Virus record (IMG/VR): IMGVR_UViG_2681813225_000019
Strand: one strand, 5' to 3'
Source: a virus
Taxonomy: Duplodnaviria; Heunggongvirae; Uroviricota; Caudoviricetes
Length of the DNA: 12,878 nucleotides
The number at the start of each line of letters is the position of its first letter. Positions within the stretch are counted from its first letter, which is position 1. The notes beneath the pieces are model-generated. The model saw nothing but the letters and a program-made list of their open reading frames with translations. It was not told where the DNA came from and searched no databases. Both the position numbers and the translations under genes were made by a program. Below, piece after piece: positions 4,041-12,878 of the stretch.

Positions 4041-4075
4041 TACTCCCCCCCAGTACCTGATACTACACCCCAGTA
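4041..4075. promoter_or_regulatory. Two RcnR operator sites in the rcnA-rcnR divergent promoter region
   Basis: TACTCCCCCCCAGTA (4041-4055) and TACTACACCCCAGTA (4061-4075). On the opposite strand these read TACT-G(n)-AGTA, the published RcnR recognition pattern (TACT-G6-N-AGTA). Confidence 0.7.
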
Positions 4076-4123
4076 GATTAATAGTGCTATGATTTTTCAT
4101 ATTCTTGTTAACCAGGTGTTGCC

Positions 4124-4396
4124 ATGTCTCATACAATCCGTGATAAACAGAAACTGAAAGCGCGTGCCAGTAAGATTCAGGGCCAGGTCGTGGCGCTCAA
4201 GAAAATGCTCGACGAGCCGCACGAATGCGCTGCAGTTTTACAACAGATTGCTGCTATCCGTGGCGCGGTAAACGGTCTGATGCGGGAAGTGATTAAAGGT
4301 CATCTGACGGAACACATCGTTCACCAGGGGGATGAGCTAAAACGTGAAGAAGATCTGGATGTCGTTCTGAAGGTGCTGGATTCATATATCAAATAA
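4124..4396 (+). CDS. rcnR: Ni(II)/Co(II)-responsive transcriptional repressor RcnR (CsoR/RcnR family), 90 aa
   Basis: 90-aa ORF ([38 protein letters not shown]...) recognised as RcnR; divergent from rcnA. Confidence 0.92.
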
Positions 4397-4486
4397 TTTA
4401 TTAACGCGATTGTAAAACTGCCGTTTTTCCTCGTTTACAACGCGTGCGCTGGACATTACCATCCTCCTCTGCGATTTATCATCGCA

Positions 4487-4537
4487 ACCAAACGACTCGG
4501 GGTGCCCTTCTGCGTGAAGGCTGAGAAATACCCGTAT
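4487..4537 (+). promoter_or_regulatory. 5' portion of the thiM TPP riboswitch aptamer (thi-box), truncated at an island junction
   Basis: AACCAAACGACTCGGGGTGCCCTTCTGCGTGAAGGCTGAGAAATACCCGTAT matches the E. coli thiM aptamer as I remember it, including the CUGAGA thi-box core. The expected continuation (CACCTGATCTGGATAATGCCAGCG...) is absent; island-type sequence follows. Confidence 0.7.
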
Positions 4538-4666
4538 TTTCTCATTTAGTGTTTTTTGTGGTTCGGGGTTGTTCGTGGTTGTTTGGATATATATTTGATA
4601 TTAAATGGAATGTTGCGTTTTCTTGTTTGTTATTGTTCGTCGTTGTTCGTAGAGCTTCAACGAAAT

Positions 4667-4690
4667 GTGTGGTCAGTTGTGTGGTCAGTT
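4667..4690 (+). repeat. Perfect tandem direct repeat, 2 x 12 bp (GTGTGGTCAGTT), 36 bp upstream of the int start
   Basis: GTGTGGTCAGTT at 4667-4678 and again at 4679-4690. Confidence 0.6.
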
Positions 4691-4725
4691 TTTTGGGGCT
4701 GGAGGACTGAAAAGAGGATCTGATA

Positions 4726-5946
4726 GTGGGAAAAGCACTAAACAAACTGAGCGATTCGACATTAAAAAAATTGGCGGCTGTCCAGGCAGAAAAAGAGCGT
4801 TTTTACTCCGACGGGGGCGGGCTGGAGATTAAACACTCAAAAGGCGGAAAATTAACCTGGTATTTCCGGTACCGAACGGGAGGCCGTGAGGTTGCCGCAG
4901 AGCGGTTAAAGCTGGGGGCTTACCCTGAATTGTCGCTGAAAGCTGCAAGGGAAAAACGCGCACAGTGCCGGGCATGGCTGGCTGAGGGTAAAAACCCCCG
5001 TTATGAGTTGTGCGCCACAGTACAGGAAGCGCTAAAACCCGTTACGGTGAAGGAGGCGATTAACTACTGGCTGGAGGAATATGCGAAGGATAACCGCAAA
5101 GACTACATAAAGCTGGTGCAACGTATGGATAAGCACATCATTTGCCATATAGGGGCAATTCCTCTTGATAAATGCGACACAAGGCAGTGGATCGCATGTT
5201 TTGACCGTGTACGAAAAAAAGCACCAGTAGCAGCGGGGCACGTCATGCAAACCTGCAAACAGGCGCTAAAGTTCTGCCGCAGGAGACGCTACGCGTTCAG
5301 TAATGCCCTGGACGATTTGATCGTCAGCGATGTGGGTAAGAGAGCAGAAATTCGCGAGAGGGTGCACAGTAACAGCGAATTAAAGGAAATTTTACGCGCT
5401 ATTGATGGTGATGTGTTCGCGCCTTACTACAGCGCGTTAATGCGCTTGCTGATTGTGTTCGGGTGCAGAACTGCAGAGGTCAGACTTTCAGAGATCAAAG
5501 AATGGGATCTGAAAGAAATGTTGTGGACAGTGCCAAAAGAGCACAGCAAAACGAAGGTAACGATATTCAGGCCAATCCCCGATGGCATTTTGCCGTTCAT
5601 TCAGAAGCTGGTGGATCAGAACCGGCATACAGGGTTATTGCTCGGAGAACTGAAAAAAGATACCACGGTAGCGCAATATGGGCGAAATGCGCATAAGCGG
5701 CTTAACCAGGAACATTGGTCACTGCATGACTTTCGCCACACGTTTACAACGATGCTGAACGATTTAGGTGTCGATCCGCATATCGTGGAGCACATCACAG
5801 CGCATCAGATGCCCGGTCAGCAAAAAACCTATAACCATTCACGCTATTTACAGGCGAAGCGGGACGCTCTGAATCTGTGGGTTGAGCGCCTCGATGTGCT
5901 GGCTGGAAATCATGAAAATATTGTTATGCTGAAGGTGGCCAAATGA
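4726..5946 (+). CDS. int: Tyrosine-type site-specific integrase (P4-like family), 406 aa
   Basis: GTG start at 4726 with AGAGGA seven nt upstream. C-terminal catalytic signature present (LHDFRHTF gives the HxxR box; YNHSRY gives the catalytic Tyr region). N-terminus resembles P4-family integrases (LSDSTLKKL). Adjacent to the island junction. Confidence 0.93.
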   Translation: MGKALNKLSDSTLKKLAAVQAEKERFYSDGGGLEIKHSKGGKLTWYFRYRTGGREVAAERLKLGAYPELSLKAAREKRAQCRAWLAEGKNPRYELCATVQEALKPVTVKEAINYWLEEYAKDNRKDYIKLVQRMDKHIICHIGAIPLDKCDTRQWIACFDRVRKKAPVAAGHVMQTCKQALKFCRRRRYAFSNALDDLIVSDVGKRAEIRERVHSNSELKEILRAIDGDVFAPYYSALMRLLIVFGCRTAEVRLSEIKEWDLKEMLWTVPKEHSKTKVTIFRPIPDGILPFIQKLVDQNRHTGLLLGELKKDTTVAQYGRNAHKRLNQEHWSLHDFRHTFTTMLNDLGVDPHIVEHITAHQMPGQQKTYNHSRYLQAKRDALNLWVERLDVLAGNHENIVMLKVAK

Positions 5947-6771: not shown

Positions 6772-6807
6772 TCGTCCTCGTTCGGCAACGTTCGAGGACG
6801 TTTTTTT
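6772..6807 (+). terminator. Terminator-like hairpin plus T7 run ending at the alpA start codon; the 3' arm carries the alpA Shine-Dalgarno
   Basis: TCGTCCTCG (6772-6780) ... CGAGGACG (6793-6800) followed by TTTTTTT (6801-6807) and ATG at 6808. GAGGA within the 3' arm is the only SD-like sequence for alpA. Confidence 0.5.
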
Positions 6808-7032
6808 ATGAATCAAAATACACAATTTCAATCACTATCAGATCGCGTAATCCGTGAGGATGAATGCCGTAAGTTAACAGGAGTGTGCCGCACTACACGC
6901 TACGAACTGGAGAAAAAAGGGAATTTCCCGTCACGCCGTAATCTGGGTGGTCGTTCAGTAGGTTGGCTGCTTTCCGAGGTTATGGAATGGGTTAAAAGCC
7001 GGGATCGTATTAATTCAGGCAAGGCAGCGTAA
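6808..7032 (+). CDS. alpA: AlpA-family phage regulatory protein / excisionase-like HTH regulator, 74 aa
   Basis: Small ORF with the AlpA-like C-terminal pattern (GGRSVGWLLSEVMEWV) and a central HTH (CRKLTGVCRTTRYELEKKGNFP); positioned between the int-proximal cargo and the replication module. Confidence 0.88.
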   Translation: MNQNTQFQSLSDRVIREDECRKLTGVCRTTRYELEKKGNFPSRRNLGGRSVGWLLSEVMEWVKSRDRINSGKAA

Positions 7033-7143
7033 AGGGGGGCATATGACACATAAAACAAAGGCGACCGCAGAGGGCCGCCAGTGGCATAACACTAAACTTG
7101 AGCATATCCAGAATACCAGGTTGTTGGCTGGTGGGCAATGCAA

Positions 7144-7320
7144 TCAGTCTGGTTCAGTTCGTTGCCATAACTGCGAAGCTCTCTCCTTTGATGAGTATTC
7201 TTTAAGGTACTTCTCAAGGGCAAAAGAACACGGCGCGAATCGTTCTGATTCATGCTCTTTCTTTCTGAGTCGTCTTTTTCGTGCAGGTGATGTTTTTTTG
7301 GTTGATTCTTCGTTGGTCAT
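7144..7320 (-). CDS. Possible small basic protein, 58 aa (below the cut-off of the supplied ORF track)
   Basis: Hand-translated minus-strand ORF, ATG at 7320 to TGA at 7146-7144: MTNEESTKKTSPARKRRLRKKEHESERFAPCSFALEKYLKEYSSKERASQLWQRTEPD. It lies 57 nt downstream of the RHH-like gene. No clear SD, so this is weakly supported. Confidence 0.3.
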   Translation of the reverse strand: MTNEESTKKTSPARKRRLRKKEHESERFAPCSFALEKYLKEYSSKERASQLWQRTEPD

Positions 7321-7377
7321 TGTGTGCGCCTGTAAAGCAATGCGCCGTAGTACCTCACACCACGGCGCTGGTGATGG

Positions 7378-7557
7378 TTACTCCTGCTCTTTGGCCTTGC
7401 GGCGCTGGCGGCGTTTGATTTCGCCTTTAACGGCAGTAACTATAAATTGCGCTTTGCTTTCACCTTCATCTAAATTTTTTTCTAAGTCTGCAACAACATC
7501 ATGCGGGAATCTGGCATTTAACTGTTGCGACTTATTATTTGTTGAACCTGTTGCCAT
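7378..7557 (-). CDS. Ribbon-helix-helix (CopG/Arc-like) small DNA-binding protein, 59 aa; candidate island repressor
   Basis: Minus-strand ORF from the internal ATG at 7557 (SD GAGAGGA upstream): MATGSTNNKSQQLNARFPHDVVADLEKNLDEGESKAQFIVTAVKGEIKRRQRRKAKEQE. The pattern fits an RHH fold (strand QLNARFP, then two helices). The 114-aa extension in the ORF track is not protein-like. Divergent from the replication operon. Confidence 0.55.
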   Translation of the reverse strand: MATGSTNNKSQQLNARFPHDVVADLEKNLDEGESKAQFIVTAVKGEIKRRQRRKAKEQE

Positions 7558-7740
7558 TACTGAATCCTCTCTAAGTTGGTGCGATTCAGTATACACAAAA
7601 AAATTCAGAGAAAAAGGCTTGAAGTGCGATTCACTTGCTGATAGGTTAAAAACAGATGGTGCGATGCACCAAATAACAACGCCCCGCAGTGCGGGAACAC
7701 ATACGGGGCGTCTAACCAACAACGTAAACTAGGAGCCGTT
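7558..7740. promoter_or_regulatory. Divergent control region between the RHH gene and the replication operon, with inverted repeats
   Basis: 9-bp inverted repeat TACTGAATC (7558-7566) / GATTCAGTA (7585-7593) spanning the RHH gene SD. GTGCGATTCA occurs at 7579-7588 and 7623-7632; TGGTGCGAT at 7577-7585 and 7657-7665. Further hairpin-like segments at about 7658-7670 and 7693-7706 were read by eye. Confidence 0.45.
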
Positions 7741-8298
7741 ATGGTTGCCGTAAATCATATACCACACCTTGTACACACACAAACGGCCTTTGTGTGGCGT
7801 TTTCTGGCCCTGAATATCGGAGAAAAAAACCAGTTGATCGCCAGTGTCGAAAATAGCTATGATTCCCGCGCACCTCATAAAACGGGTGCCGGGATTGGCG
7901 TCCTGGGCAAAACTGAAGCGCATAACACGCGCCCCGCGTGTTTTTTTGTGCCGCATAGTCACACCTTATCAATGGTGGGCTGTACGGGGGCGGAGCAATC
8001 CGCGCCGGTTTCTTCAGTGTCCGGTTACGCCAACCCTGTACAGTCCGCCACCAGCGAAATTGGCGTTTCCGGTGGCGGTTATCTTAACCACACTGAGGAG
8101 GCTGCCAACATGGCTACTATCCCTACCCTTGTACATTCTCAAACCGCCTTTCTCTGGCGCTTTATCATCTTTGGCGCGTCAGAACATCAAATCATCCACG
8201 TAACCGCCTGGACGGAACGCGAAGCGCGTAGCCGTTGCCCGTCAGGTTGTGTTGCTGTATTCGCCGCCCGTATTCGTCAGGGGGTGTGCCATGCTTAA
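7741..8298 (+). CDS. First ORF of the replication operon; 185-aa ORF made of two tandem paralogous small-protein modules (possibly two genes, with the second starting at 8110)
   Basis: ATG at 7741 with AGGAG upstream. Module 1 (...HLVHTQTAFVWRFLA...) and module 2 (MATIPTLVHSQTAFLWRFIIF..., own GAGGAGG SD at 8095-8101 and ATG at 8110) are clearly related. The module-1 equivalent of the module-2 C-terminus (VAVFAARIR) appears in a different frame (RVFLCRIV). Confidence 0.5.
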   Translation: MVAVNHIPHLVHTQTAFVWRFLALNIGEKNQLIASVENSYDSRAPHKTGAGIGVLGKTEAHNTRPACFFVPHSHTLSMVGCTGAEQSAPVSSVSGYANPVQSATSEIGVSGGGYLNHTEEAANMATIPTLVHSQTAFLWRFIIFGASEHQIIHVTAWTEREARSRCPSGCVAVFAARIRQGVCHA

Positions 8299-8476
8299 AA
8301 CCTTCCGTGTATTTGCCAGCGCTGTTAACCCACTAGGCCACACAATTGGTATCGCTCAGAATGTGAAGGCTGTTAATGTTCAGACGGCTATTGCTGCGGT
8401 GAGAAGCGAATCATCAGAATATGGCTTATCACAAGTCATTATTTCAGCAGTGTATGAATTAAAAGAGGTGCATTAA
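8291..8476 (+). CDS. Hypothetical small protein, 61 aa
   Basis: ATG at 8291 with AGGGGG six nt upstream, overlapping the previous ORF's stop; MLKTFRVFASAVNPLGHTIGIAQNVKAVNVQTAIAAVRSESSEYGLSQVIISAVYELKEVH. The longer start at 8249 is less likely. Confidence 0.55.
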   Translation: MLKTFRVFASAVNPLGHTIGIAQNVKAVNVQTAIAAVRSESSEYGLSQVIISAVYELKEVH

Positions 8477-8667
8477 TGAAGGAAATTACATTACACGAAG
8501 CCGCTGAACGTGCGCACCAGACAGAAATTATTTGCCGCCTTCTTGAGGTATACCCTAATAAATTAAATGATGGTGATATATCCGCATTAGCTGGCCTTCT
8601 GGCAAAACTGTCAGGAAGTGTTGCGCTGTGGTTAATTGATGAGAGAGCCGAACGCTATGAAAAATAA
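8476..8667 (+). CDS. Hypothetical small protein, 63 aa
   Basis: ATG at 8476 overlaps the upstream stop (TAATG); SD AAGAGGTG at 8463-8470. Confidence 0.6.
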   Translation: MKEITLHEAAERAHQTEIICRLLEVYPNKLNDGDISALAGLLAKLSGSVALWLIDERAERYEK

Positions 8668-8904: not shown

Positions 8905-9204
8905 ATGAAACTTAAATATCCTGGCTTAACTGACAGCGGCAAAACTCGCACTAAATTCATGCGCGGGGATATTTACCGCGACCAGTACGGCGGCACGGTA
9001 ATGATTAAGGGCGTGGAGGAACGGCGCGTAACCTACCATCGTGAAGGCTACGAATATGATTGCGTGATGCCTGTTTATCAGTTCCGGCGTGATTTTTCTC
9101 TGGTACAGGCAGCGCCCCGCAGTAAACCAACCAGCAGGGAGAAAGCACGCGCCAATATTCAGGAAATAAAAAAGATGCTTAACGTATTCAGGGGTAAGAA
9201 ATGA
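8905..9204 (+). CDS. Hypothetical protein, 99 aa
   Basis: ATG at 8905 following the upstream stop at 8897-8899; its stop overlaps the start of the replication gene (ATGA at 9201-9204). Confidence 0.65.
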   Translation: MKLKYPGLTDSGKTRTKFMRGDIYRDQYGGTVMIKGVEERRVTYHREGYEYDCVMPVYQFRRDFSLVQAAPRSKPTSREKARANIQEIKKMLNVFRGKK

Positions 9205-11333
9205 AACTGGCACCGAACGTAAAAAAACAGCCACGCGGAATAAAACACAAAGACACAGAGGTAATTATTTTCGCGGGTAGTGATGCCTGGTCGCACGCGA
9301 AACAATGGCAGGAGCAGGATGGCCCCGCATCCGGCGATAATGTTCCGCCTGTGTGGCTTGGGCCAAATCAGCTTGCCGAACTTGATGCGCTGAAAATTGT
9401 TCCGGATGGAAAAAAACGCGTAAGGCTGTACCAGGCCGGAGAACTGGATTTGGTGGAGACCAAAAAGATTGGTCAGAAGCTGGCGGCGGCAGATATTCAG
9501 GACGCAAATTTTTACCCCGAAGGAATGCACGGTCAGAAGGTGGAGAACTGGCGCGAATATCTGGCCCGTGAGCGGCAGAATCTTTCTGATGGTCTGGTTA
9601 TTGAGTTTCCGGTAAAGAAAAAAGATACCGGAAGCCATAGCGATGACGAATTAAAGCCACGCGTTGAAAGTCGCGCCGATGGTGTTTTCTGGGTAACGCC
9701 CAAAGTGGATAAGCAGTCAGGCGAAATTATCCGGCCTGAGACGTGGTTATGTTCTCCGCTTGAACTACTGGGAACGGGGACGATCGGTAAAGAGCATTAC
9801 CGCGTGATGCGCTGGAAAAAAACCGCAAACCATAAAGTCATCACAATGGCGATCCCGTGTGGTGGTATCGGCGACCGTGACGGCTGGCGGTTACTTAAAG
9901 ATCACGGGCTGAACGTGACAACCAACGGCAAATACAGGGCAATCCTGGCGGACTGGATGCAGTTAAGCGGAAGCCATGAGGAATGGCAGTTAAGCACAAC
10001 AACGGGCTGGCATTTTGGCGCGTACATCATGCCGGACGGTTCGATCATTGGTGAATCTGAAAAACCGATCCTGTTTACCGGAAAAAGCGCCGCGATTAAC
10101 GGTTATTCCGTGGCGGGCACGGCGGATGGCTGGCGCGACAGCGTGGCGCGGCTGGCTGGCGGTAATGCCTCAATGATACTGGGTGTGGCAACGTCACTGG
10201 CAGCGCCTTTAATTGGCCTTGTGGGTGCTGACGGCTTCGGGGTGCATCTTTTCGAACAGTCATCGGCAGGTAAGACCACCACGCAGAACATCGCATCAAG
10301 TTTATGGGGAGAGCCGGACGCGCAGCGGCTGACCTGGTACGGCACGGCGTTAGGTATTGCCAATGAGGCCGAGGCCCATAATGACGGGCTTTTACCACTG
10401 GATGAGATAGGCCAGGCCGGAAATGCGCGGGAAGTGTCAACGTCTGCTTATACGCTGTTTAACGGTTCAGGGAAATTGCAGGGGGCGAAGGATGGCGGCA
10501 ACAGGGAGATCAAACACTGGCGAACGGTGGCAATCAGCACCGGAGAAATGGACGTTGAGACATTCCTCAAAAGTGAGGGGATAAAAGTTAAGGCGGGGCA
10601 GCTTGTCCGACTGCTTAACGTTCCGATGGAAAAAGCCACGAAATTTCACGAATACAGCAACGGTAAGGAACATGCTGACGCGTTAAAGGATGCCTGGACA
10701 GCAAATCACGGGGCGGCGGGTCGTGAGTGGGTTAAATGGCTGGCAGGCCACCAGCAGGAGGCAAAGGACACGGTAAGGGAATGCCGCGAACGGTGGCGCA
10801 ACCTGATACCGGAGAGTTACGGCGAGCAGGTCCACCGCGTGGGTGAACGTTTCGCCATACTGGAGGCCGCGCTTGTGCTTTCCGGTCATGTAACTGGCTG
10901 GGTCGTGCAGGAATGCCGCGACGCGATACAGCATAACTTTAATGCCTGGGTGAAGGAGTTCGGCACAGGTAACAGGGAATTTAAACAGATGGTTGAACAG
11001 GCTGAGGCGTTTTTGTCGTCGTTTGGGTTTAGCCGCTACCTTCCGTACCCCAATACAGATGAGCGTGATTTACCGATTAAAGAGCTTGCCGGATACAGAA
11101 AAGGGAGCATTCGCAACGAAGATGACGAGATGCGCTATTACACGTTCCCGCACGTGTTTGAGAGTGAGATAGCGAAGGGATTTAATCCGGCGCATTTTGC
11201 GCGTGCCCTGGATGCTGCCGGAATGCTGGAGAAGGGAAGCGATCGCCGATACAAAAAAAAGGCGCTGGGCAAGATTGGGGGTAAGCAGCATGTTTTTTAC
11301 GTGCTGATGTTCCAGCCTGATGATGAAGATTAA
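9201..11333 (+). CDS. Island replication protein, 710 aa: primase/helicase-like with a central P-loop NTPase (DUF927-type, family assignment from memory)
   Basis: Large ORF translationally coupled to upstream genes. Walker A-like SSAGKTT and Walker B-like LLPLDEIG present. Immediately followed by an iteron array, the arrangement seen in satellite/PICI replication modules. Confidence 0.88.
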   Translation: MKLAPNVKKQPRGIKHKDTEVIIFAGSDAWSHAKQWQEQDGPASGDNVPPVWLGPNQLAELDALKIVPDGKKRVRLYQAGELDLVETKKIGQKLAAADIQDANFYPEGMHGQKVENWREYLARERQNLSDGLVIEFPVKKKDTGSHSDDELKPRVESRADGVFWVTPKVDKQSGEIIRPETWLCSPLELLGTGTIGKEHYRVMRWKKTANHKVITMAIPCGGIGDRDGWRLLKDHGLNVTTNGKYRAILADWMQLSGSHEEWQLSTTTGWHFGAYIMPDGSIIGESEKPILFTGKSAAINGYSVAGTADGWRDSVARLAGGNASMILGVATSLAAPLIGLVGADGFGVHLFEQSSAGKTTTQNIASSLWGEPDAQRLTWYGTALGIANEAEAHNDGLLPLDEIGQAGNAREVSTSAYTLFNGSGKLQGAKDGGNREIKHWRTVAISTGEMDVETFLKSEGIKVKAGQLVRLLNVPMEKATKFHEYSNGKEHADALKDAWTANHGAAGREWVKWLAGHQQEAKDTVRECRERWRNLIPESYGEQVHRVGERFAILEAALVLSGHVTGWVVQECRDAIQHNFNAWVKEFGTGNREFKQMVEQAEAFLSSFGFSRYLPYPNTDERDLPIKELAGYRKGSIRNEDDEMRYYTFPHVFESEIAKGFNPAHFARALDAAGMLEKGSDRRYKKKALGKIGGKQHVFYVLMFQPDDED

Positions 11334-12376: not shown

Positions 12377-12649
12377 ATGGTACATGACCGCATAGCGGAA
12401 GAACTGGAGGCGAAAGGCTTTTACCGGAGAGCGTCGGCGCGATGGGGTGAAGTCATGCAACTGGTGGAGACAGACAAGGAACGGCATCACATCACGATGC
12501 GACGGCTGGAATGTTCCAGGAAGGCACAGAGGCCACCGGAGCCGCCGGATAATTACGGAGACCTGAAAAAGGCGGTCGATCGCACTTATGCCGAAATGGG
12601 TATGGATGGTGCTGGTGATGAAATATGGCGAAATTACCAGGACAGATAA
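12377..12649 (+). CDS. PerC-family transcriptional regulator-like protein, about 90 aa (alternative GTG start at 12368)
   Basis: MVHDRIAEELEAKGFYRRASARWGEVM... resembles the N-terminal region of PerC/Pch-type regulators, as recalled from memory. ATG at 12377 preceded by GAGGGGTGGGGA. Confidence 0.7.
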   Translation: MVHDRIAEELEAKGFYRRASARWGEVMQLVETDKERHHITMRRLECSRKAQRPPEPPDNYGDLKKAVDRTYAEMGMDGAGDEIWRNYQDR

Positions 12650-12655
12650 TCACAC

Positions 12656-12678
12656 AGCCGGAGCAATCCGGCTTTTTG
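12656..12678 (+). terminator. Rho-independent terminator downstream of the perC-like gene
   Basis: AGCCGG (12656-12661), loop AGCAAT, CCGGCT (12668-12673), then TTTTT (12674-12678). Confidence 0.65.
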
Positions 12679-12878
12679 TCATGTTTTGTAAATTATTTGT
12701 TCGTGGTTGTTCCACGTTGTTCACTGAGCGGATCGGCATATTTTACCCGAACTGAATCATGATTATTCTCGCCCGTGGTGCCAGGACGCTGGGGCCACTT
12801 TCCCGCCTGTTAATGTTCTCGCCAATATTCATTACCAGGCGGGAAAACGAACGGTGCGATTGCTGATTTCCTTATGAA

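Follow-up and report, generated by a model that had tools for sequence, protein, structure and literature searches.

A candidate ribbon-helix-helix repressor cassette with exchangeable operator boxes ahead of the icd-led operon of an Escherichia satellite island

The DNA studied here, called the window throughout, is a stretch of 12,878 nucleotides recorded in IMG/VR as IMGVR_UViG_2681813225_000019, and its subject is a small ylcI-like gene at 7378-7557 on the minus strand together with the DNA upstream of it. The gene encodes a 59-residue protein of the YlcI/YnfO family (MATGSTNNKSQQLNARFPHDVVADLEKNLDEGESKAQFIVTAVKGEIKRRQRRKAKEQE), for which a ribbon-helix-helix (RHH) fold is predicted, and it points away from an icd-led operon that ends in a primase gene, with 183 bp between the ylcI ATG and the next plus-strand ATG at 7741. 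An original prediction, made from the letters of the window, had described an RHH-like regulator transcribed divergently from the replication genes, with operator-like repeats in between, and this divergent orientation holds. Taken together, the comparisons reported here make it likely that ylcI, two promoters and three repeated boxes form an autoregulated repressor cassette of swappable specificity acting on the icd-led early and replication operon, binding and repression being proposed from sequence.

The 59-residue reading frame named in the original prediction is real and widely conserved. The protein scores 63.3 bits with the NCBIfam model YlcI_YnfO_N (NF041551), whose cutoff is 30 (E 1.5e-17; residues 9-50 aligned to model positions 1-42), and RefSeq labels a gene identical to that of the window as YlcI/YnfO. 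Homologues fall into 134 clusters of nearly constant length (59-61 residues), found in Escherichia, Klebsiella, Salmonella, Enterobacter, Citrobacter, Morganella, Proteus, Hafnia, Yersinia, Pectobacterium, Xenorhabdus and other genera. The family is nonetheless small, since an exhaustive profile search of 1.84 billion proteins yielded only 92 YlcI representatives at 50% clustering, and no detectable relative was obtained by tblastn against 50,697 phage records. In the literature searched, YlcI/YnfO appears only at the level of annotation, as a "prophage-associated protein" listed for Enterobacter phage-inducible chromosomal islands (PICIs) of the capsid-forming kind. The namesake YlcI of Escherichia coli K-12, in DLP12 (locus L049, 5252-5446, minus strand), lies directly upstream of a lambda-type cos site and nohD; it was set aside as an example of the same architecture, because its genomic context differs from that of the satellite cassette.

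Regarding the fold, the YlcI alignments display the RHH pattern: a variable strand, closed by R-x-P, leads into a first helix, which a G-E-S/T turn connects to a second helix with a basic tail, EIKRRQRR. The turn G32-E33-S34 has the Gly-X-Ser/Thr/Asn form of RHH proteins, E33 being invariant and G32 nearly invariant among 35 close homologues, and E33 being kept in at least 90% of a broader 37-sequence alignment. A first AlphaFold model built from a shallow alignment was weak; with a deeper alignment, the modelled monomer reached a pLDDT of 88.6 and adopted a strand-helix-helix arrangement, and the RHH fold is thus a well supported prediction. No helix-turn-helix (HTH) family was matched in Pfam and NCBIfam scans. 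When the strand is aligned to that of Arc, with an hhalign probability of 8-37%, Q12, N14 and R16 of YlcI fall on Q9, N11 and R13 of Arc, the residues through which Arc contacts DNA.

The upstream region was compared among 42 loci encoding YlcI relatives, taken from one genome per species and about 20 enterobacterial genera. The Shine-Dalgarno sequence of ylcI, GAGAGGA (7566-7572, minus strand), keeps GGAG or GAGG at this position across loci. Outside the repeated boxes, two near-invariant blocks stand out among 39 unique upstream regions, namely GTATACTG at -37 to -30 from the ylcI ATG, conserved in at least 90% of them, and a TTGA on the opposite strand, invariant in all 39. The former would provide the -10 element of the leftward promoter, P_L (TATACT on the minus strand, 7588-7593), and the latter belongs to the putative -35 element of the rightward promoter, P_R (TTGAAG, 7619-7624, plus strand), followed 17-18 nt 3' of TTGA by a conserved TAnnnT as the presumed -10 element, which reads TAGGTT in the window (7642-7647, plus strand) and TATAGT, TAAAGT or TAATGT in relatives. 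These would be back-to-back promoters for ylcI and the icd-led operon, with transcription starts predicted near 7580, at the first box, for P_L and at about 7654 for P_R.

The repeats named in the original prediction are all present. Three of them contain GTGCGAT, as GTGCGATTCA at 7579-7588 and 7624-7633 and GTGCGATGCA at 7659-7668, and a further matching pair consists of AGTTGGTGCGATTCA (7574-7588) and AGATGGTGCGATGCA (7654-7668); a hairpin-like segment lies at 7679-7711. The proposed 9-bp inverted repeat, TACTGAATC at 7558-7566 with GATTCAGTA at 7583-7591, is likewise there and 100% complementary, but it is not a conserved element: of 37 unique upstream regions, 3 have it in full, usually only TACTG/CAGTA being kept, and it is a by-product of the junction between the -10 element and the first box, combined with the conserved start context TTCAGTAATG. 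Judged from the window alone, the repeats are unusual to a moderate degree only. Dinucleotide shuffles of the 183 bp gave inverted repeats 9 bp or longer in 22 of 2000 cases and a duplicated 9-mer with a third copy at up to one mismatch in 19 of 2000, and GTGCGATTC, with up to one mismatch, has 6 matches in the whole 12.9-kb window against 3.0 expected, both exact copies and one single-mismatch copy falling within the 183 bp. The significance of the boxes comes from comparison across loci and not from window statistics.

In the window, the three boxes share the consensus GTG-CGAT(T/G)-CA(C/G), a case of the general form GTG-N5-CAC, which is a pseudo-palindrome of 11-13 bp. The putative operator O1 (GTGCGATTCAG, 7579-7589) abuts the ylcI -10 element and covers the predicted ylcI transcription start; O2 (GTGCGATTCAC, 7624-7634) lies within the P_R spacer; and O3 (TGGTGCGATGCACCA, 7657-7671, with the core GTGCGATGCAC at 7659-7669) lies just past the P_R start. 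With this placement on both sets of promoter elements, repression of P_L and P_R alike is predicted. Among the 42 loci, copies of the 9-nt core keep constant distances to the ylcI ATG (-30, -75 and about -100 to -113), and nearly all loci have the third box at -99 to -113, pointing one way or the other.

The flanks GTG and CAC are conserved, and the centre of the box is lineage-specific, with all copies in one locus altered alike. Across 11 distinct box types, copies within a locus differ at 0.9-1.1 of 9 positions, compared with 2.8-3.2 between loci, and none of 100,000 permutations produced a within-locus agreement as good as that observed. Moreover, the variable centre co-varies with residues 11-15 of the YlcI β-strand: the strand KSQQLNARFP is found with the box GAATCGCAC, KSQMTTVRIP with GA(A/C)ATACAC, KSQQIVSRVP with GAATGCCAC, KSRQKTARVP with GACTCCCAC, KSLQ(V/L)SVRLP with GAACACCAC and KSQS(V/I)TVRVL with GTCTTACAC, and the E. 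coli islands add the types GTGGGCCAC (CFT073) and GTGGCTGAC (O157:H7). Little or no variation is seen in R16 and in the GTG/CAC flanks, in contrast to positions 12 and 14 and the box centre, as expected of a recognition ribbon. In the comparative analysis, the GTGCGAT repeats thus behave as YlcI operators would, lying on promoter elements, evolving in concert and segregating with ylcI, which bears out the operator-like character first ascribed to them.

The segregation is seen in natural mosaics among islands. The closest complete-genome relative of the window is an O157 strain (locus L001), whose island sits at the same chromosomal site and further on carries genes for major capsid, prohead protease and portal, for which reason it is regarded as a capsid-forming PICI. 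The two are 97-98% identical in int (4726-5946, plus strand), alpA (6808-7032, plus strand), a small reading frame called orf58 and all that follows from 8257, whereas the interval 7409-8256 differs, including the ylcI allele and the boxes. The opposite situation is found with locus L002, where int, alpA and the primase gene differ from those of the window, and the block 7126-7824 is 99.4% identical, with ylcI and the boxes the same. At locus L045 (NZ_CP032789.1, strain NZRM4169), homology with the window ends at 7370 and restarts at 7670, so that both flanks are kept, namely the hairpin behind the ylcI stop and the leader hairpin with icd, and ylcI is lost. In its position (4049-4222, minus strand) stands an unannotated Arc-like reading frame of 57 codons (MSTPLEKRSPPYQMRLPEDFRAQLEEAAKADGDTSLATWIKRVLRKEL...), with a sub-threshold match to Pfam Arc and an hhalign probability of 64% to the YlcI profile, accompanied by a repeated palindrome of its own, ATGGTAATTACC; RefSeq annotates nothing at this locus but a long "Icd-like" pseudogene, which lies on the opposite strand. 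In L001 and in L048 (O157:H7 NE 1092-2), other ylcI alleles and other boxes lie between the same flanks. The mosaics show that the swapped unit consists of one small RHH-type gene, both promoters and the matching repeats, with homology breakpoints that place it at about 7369-7675 in the window. The boxes hence travel with ylcI, and not with alpA, int or the primase gene.

The borders of this cassette are marked by two hairpins. The left one directly follows the ylcI stop codon (7342-7368, minus strand) and may be a weak terminator or a processing site. The right one is a conserved hairpin in the predicted leader of the icd transcript (7679-7711, plus strand; arms 7679-7686 and 7704-7711), followed by TCTAACCA at 7712-7719; RNAalifold predicted 9 pairs from 31 sequences, 8 of them with compensatory changes. 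It has no U-tract, and no Rfam family matched it, whether the gathering threshold or the E-value threshold was applied.

The module is present in the prototype island EcCICFT073 (locus L047), which has been studied by experiment; there, ylcI (8474-8653, minus strand) stands ahead of icd and the primase operon, with a putative P_R of TTGACG-18-TATAGT, two GTGGGCCAC boxes and one GTGGGGGAC box. In the capsid-forming island of L001, the gene (12522-12827, minus strand) encodes a 101-residue YlcI variant with an additional C-terminal helical region and a β-strand identical to that of the window protein. Of 5426 complete E. coli genomes, 1883 contain DNA related to a 431-bp query, and the window's own cassette allele was found in 71 genomes, once in each; with about one double expected by chance, these numbers give a test for mutual exclusion of identical cassettes no power.

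As for the surroundings, the left part of the window is Escherichia chromosome (yehB, yehA, rcnB, rcnA and rcnR), followed by the integrated island. Between int and alpA, the latter assigned to the AlpA-family regulators (Pfam PF05930, E 3.4e-16), there is one hypothetical gene on the plus strand, and behind the icd region lie a DUF4222 gene (8905-9204, plus strand) and the DUF927 primase gene (9201-11333, plus strand). The interval from rcnR to int covers 4397-4725 in the window and 7362-9872 in L001, where it holds three additional genes (outer membrane protein, hypothetical and HTH-like) that are absent from the window. No tRNA gene is present at the attachment site of the island. A hairpin, GTCCTCG...CGAGGAC followed by seven T (6776-6807, plus strand), abuts the alpA start codon from upstream and could be either a terminator of the preceding gene or an attenuator of alpA.

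The alpA gene is convergent with ylcI and orf58, and it is coupled to a plus-strand reading frame that runs antisense to both. This open frame of 229 codons (7043-7732) begins with an ATG 11 nt past the alpA stop, preceded by the Shine-Dalgarno sequence AGGGGGG, and its TAG stop (7730-7732) overlaps the Shine-Dalgarno sequence of the ATG at 7741, from which point the subsequent reading frames overlap one another. The 183 bp had been taken as intergenic, which is right for the gap to the next ATG; the segment nevertheless lies inside a stop-free plus frame coupled to alpA. In all 38 loci, that frame passes through the whole of ylcI without a stop, and among 39 unique sequences it has none, compared with stops in 38-39 of the 39 for each of the other four non-coding frames. 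When ylcI was resampled with synonymous codons, a stop appeared in the plus frame in 60% of the sequences, with a minimum of 15 of 39 over 300 trials. In 28 of 38 loci, the open frame extends at least 298 nt beyond the ylcI ATG, through the operators and the hairpin into icd, and in L001, L045 and CFT073 it runs from just past the alpA stop to the icd stop, over 348, 314 and 428 codons, respectively. The long frame accounts for more than 1000 protein clusters of 300-370 residues, labelled "Icd-like" or "ash family", and because annotations call this overlapping frame, ylcI often remains uncalled and is easily overlooked.

The ylcI frame shows 7960 changes at second codon positions compared with 9070 at first positions, and with this constraint and the fold evidence, ylcI is best taken as the primary coding frame, the plus frame seemingly being selected mainly to stay open. 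A terminator scan found no plus-strand terminator in 7032-7740. The layout, a long frame beside the alpA stop that spans a control region and is coupled to icd, mirrors that of eta and kil in phage P4, where eta is coupled to the alpA homologue and holds the immunity promoter and the CI RNA, Kil is its nested short form, and transcripts from the late promoter need eta to be translated for read-through (PMC10111431).

Downstream of the cassette, a further layer of control is predicted. The reading frame of 185 codons at 7741-8298 (plus strand) resembles P4 eta and is made up of about 25 codons of an icd N-terminus, an isrK/C4 region and an Icd-like C-terminus, those first codons being the start of the intact 65-residue icd that follows the identical cassette in L002 from the same ATG. 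Inside it, a promoter-like site picked up only by the consensus scan (TTGATC-18-TATGAT, 7834-7863, plus strand) precedes an isrK-type RNA, a relative of P4 seqA (7870-7946, plus strand; Rfam RF01394, 66 bits against a gathering threshold of 50), with an intrinsic terminator at 7924-7942, and a C4 or CI-type antisense immunity RNA (7968-8055, plus strand; Rfam RF01695, 77.6 bits against 45). The loop of the latter (8009-8020) can form 9 contiguous pairs with a target at 8090-8101 (plus strand; 8090-8098 in the duplex), which overlaps the Shine-Dalgarno region ACACUGAGG of a short Icd-like frame of 62 residues (8110-8298, plus strand, starting with the ATG at 8110; NCBIfam NF033153, 60 bits, over residues 137-180 of the long frame). 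This duplex is better than 288 of 300 shuffles, and the pairing of C4 with the first leader (7653-7745) does not exceed that obtained with shuffled sequence. The features of P4/P1-type RNA immunity, with C4 and isrK ahead of an icd-like frame whose Shine-Dalgarno sequence is complementary to the C4 loop, are thus found at 7870-8298 and not in the ylcI cassette, and immunity of the P4 CI-seqA or P1 immI type has already been noted in Gram-negative PICIs (PMC10111431). The Pfam Phage_ASH match (residues 40-133 of the 185-codon frame) coincides exactly with the isrK/C4 region, and the label "ash family protein" may therefore refer largely to translated RNA genes.

Consequently, the original statement that the rightward promoter controls the replication genes needs qualification: the icd-led operon does end in the primase gene, but in the window, P_R enters an icd fragment and then the isrK-C4-icd leader, not the replication genes directly, which would place those genes behind two control layers. 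The tandem layout of ylcI cassette, icd fragment, isrK, C4 and icd is found again in L048, there with another ylcI allele, and many other E. coli genomes show the annotated combination of ash, YlcI/YnfO and Icd-like proteins. In L001, L002 and CFT073, ylcI is present without C4 or isrK, and P_R stands directly before icd and the replication genes.

Building on the observed anatomy of the sequence, its conservation and concerted variation, the mosaics, the RNA family matches and the fold prediction, the following mode of action is proposed. YlcI dimers or higher oligomers would bind O1, O2 and O3, limiting their own synthesis at P_L and keeping P_R shut in the resting island, and the gene, its promoters and its boxes would act as one exchangeable specificity cassette, comparable to an immunity region. 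Where present, C4 and isrK would add a second, RNA-based block. A helper phage would turn on alpA, as was demonstrated for EcCICFT073 (Fillol-Salom et al. 2018), and translated read-through from the alpA promoter would probably cross the cassette, collide with ylcI transcription and enter the operon, much as transcripts from the P4 late promoter run through eta. This read-through is the weakest step of the mechanism, and it would reconcile a resident repressor with the finding that over-expression of AlpA alone triggers replication of EcCICFT073 (Fillol-Salom et al. 2018, PMC6092414).

Several points weigh against this repressor reading. A Pfam scan of the 59-residue protein found no family at E ≤ 0.01, including no RHH family, and at E ≤ 10 it yielded RHH families below threshold only; the sub-threshold matches were to Pfam CB_ParB_C, Pfam PSK_trans_fac and PDB 3no7 (E 0.013-0.035), the best in a profile search of PDB sequences being the RHH ParB 3no7 at E 0.035. 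A consensus promoter scan of the window called neither P_L nor P_R, so that their assignment derives from cross-locus conservation, and the -10 element of P_R, TAGGTT, is weak. A strict code linking strand to box is ruled out by L001, which has the same strand, KSQQLNARFP, with a re-oriented box differing at 2 nt (GTGGTATTCAC, also given as TGGTATTCAC), at -53, -77 and -97 and in orientations unlike those of the window. Since the boxes and ylcI are physically linked, their co-variation partly reflects co-inheritance, and as the wobble positions of the ylcI and plus frames coincide, codon-position statistics cannot cleanly separate the two. In addition, transcripts from P_R in the window meet the isrK terminator and C4 control before the replication genes, and the contribution of ylcI there may accordingly be small. 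Finally, induction of EcCICFT073 by AlpA alone implies that repression can be overridden and that the ylcI module is not a dominant master repressor in the sense of Stl.

The last points are those on which the best surviving alternative draws, in which the cassette is functional but marginal, YlcI only autoregulating and damping a minor promoter, with AlpA read-through and isrK/C4 controlling the operon and the cassette being a recent passenger. The weak P_R, its route through the icd fragment, the isrK terminator and C4, and the AlpA response of EcCICFT073 would all fit, and the 99.4% identity of 7126-7824 with an otherwise unrelated island, L002, suggests a recent exchange. Nevertheless, this account appears rather improbable, as the tandem layout recurs with another allele in L048 and its annotated equivalent in many E. 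coli genomes, P_R lies immediately ahead of icd and the replication genes in the three islands without C4, and the frame at 7741-8298 is open through both RNAs, so that translated P_R transcripts could read through them as in P4 eta.

A second possibility is that the boxes are bound by another factor, such as AlpA, the product of the long plus frame, a replication protein or a host factor, and that YlcI has its target elsewhere. Linked sequences are inherited together, satellites often carry iteron-like repeats, and binding by YlcI is itself deduced, all of which would allow such a binder; however, the boxes follow ylcI rather than alpA, int or the primase gene in the mosaics, ylcI, or the Arc-like frame that stands in for it, is the sole complete gene of the exchanged stretch, the centre of the box changes along with the RHH β-strand, and the boxes overlap promoter elements instead of the replication-origin region downstream of the primase gene, which leaves little probability for it.

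Slightly less credit still is given to a small toxin-antitoxin or addiction pair formed by ylcI and orf58, in which the boxes would serve the RHH antitoxin for autoregulation, without any part in induction. An RHH gene with a small basic frame behind it (orf58, 7144-7320, minus strand, 58 residues), which may be the second gene of the leftward unit and is followed by a good minus-strand terminator at 7079-7060, fits type II modules, for which autoregulation through operator repeats is typical. Against this, orf58 has no Pfam or NCBIfam match and hence no recognised toxin family, its 10 clusters all come from Escherichia and Shigella, ylcI being far more widespread, a hairpin separates the two, and two of the three boxes lie on the divergent P_R and not on the ylcI promoter. 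Conservation of the DNA also runs past the orf58 stop, which makes its coding status doubtful. The plus frame opposite orf58 carries a conserved Cys/His motif, GGQCxQSGSVRCHxC.

That ylcI is not a gene at all, being a shadow of the long plus-strand "Icd-like/ash" frame, which has no stop in any locus, accounts for more than 1000 annotated clusters and coincides with ylcI in its wobble positions, is scarcely credible in view of the confident RHH model and residue pattern, the conserved ATG, Shine-Dalgarno sequence, -10 element and terminator-like hairpin, the lower rate of change at second codon positions, the K-12 family member in a different context and the analogous RHH-like frame in the place of ylcI in L045.

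The repressor cassette remains the preferred explanation, and it bears on how Gram-negative PICIs stay silent: a global repressor in these islands has been called "unclear", only the activator AlpA having been found (Fillol-Salom et al. 2018, PMC6092414). In the searchable literature, with subscription journals not covered, no paper was found on such a repressor in AlpA-type islands, on the function of YlcI/YnfO, on RHH proteins of PICIs or on repressors of capsid-forming PICIs or EcCICFT073, beyond mentions at the level of annotation, in agreement with the original remark that a module of this kind is not usually described for AlpA-activated E. coli islands. RHH repressors on divergent promoters are known as such; what is new is the repressor role assigned to YlcI/YnfO, the three-box architecture with exchangeable specificities, the presence of the cassette in model Gram-negative PICIs, where no repressor is known, and its antisense embedding in an alpA-coupled open frame. 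The cassette thus offers a concrete candidate within the model islands themselves, and YlcI/YnfO, so far only a name, gains a predicted fold, predicted operators and a natural series of protein-operator specificities. The antisense embedding ties the control of PICIs to the eta/kil logic of P4 and suggests a wiring between activator and repressor. A bolder proposal, put forward tentatively and with the odds against it, is that Gram-negative and capsid-forming PICIs have their missing immunity repressor in the YlcI RHH cassette, an exchangeable specificity module antisense within an eta-like frame coupled to alpA, that helper-induced, translated read-through from the alpA promoter flips the switch through convergent transcription over the repressor gene, and that the protein and box types determine the mutual silencing of satellites, co-resident or incoming. 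If the binding prediction fails, an ordinary small regulator is left beside the known C4/isrK RNAs.

When known systems are considered, the analogy originally drawn to Stl does not hold beyond the arrangement of a regulator divergent from a satellite replication operon and the proposed silencing role, which Stl/Rpr (PMC6092414) and ylcI would share. YlcI is neither a homologue of Stl nor Stl-like in organisation: Stl and Rpr are large HTH proteins, whereas YlcI is an RHH protein of 59 residues without homology to them; the stl gene runs in the direction of int, whereas ylcI runs against int and is convergent with alpA; and Stl is relieved by helper-phage proteins, whereas EcCICFT073, with its ylcI module, is induced by AlpA over-expression. 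The plasmid RHH regulators CopG and omega bind contiguous heptads, unlike the ylcI boxes, which lie 35-45 bp apart and have no partition or copy-control partner gene.

The immunity region of P4, with the promoters PLE and PLL, a CI RNA with seqA and seqC, the nested eta and kil and Vis (PMC10111431), shares several features with the window. In both, a vis or alpA homologue is followed by a coupled long frame with an internal promoter and CI-like (C4) and seqA-like (isrK) RNAs, ending in a short frame of the cell-division-inhibitor type ahead of the primase operon. No protein repressor has been described for the P4 region, however, whereas the window has an RHH gene and its putative operators antisense within the eta-like frame, and in many islands (L001, L002 and CFT073 among them) the ylcI cassette replaces the RNA system altogether.

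In the immI region of phages P1 and P7, the c4 antisense RNA is followed by icd and ant (Rfam RF01695, RF03163), a likeness that concerns only the downstream layer of the window, where a C4 RNA precedes an icd-like frame with a ribosome-binding site complementary to the C4 loop; in P1 the repressor is C1, acting at Op51, and in the window it would be an RHH protein. In the immI region of phage P22, the RHH repressors Arc and Mnt act on the divergent promoters Pant and Pmnt. P22 has a single operator of 21 bp, compared with three separate boxes of 11-13 bp in the ylcI cassette, and Pfam Arc stays below threshold for YlcI; P22 is a phage, whereas the cassette belongs to a satellite, serves an operon running from icd to the primase gene and has its gene embedded antisense in another reading frame. 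Even so, the YlcI system would work most like the Arc/Mnt switch of P22 immI joined to an immunity leader of the P4/P1 type.

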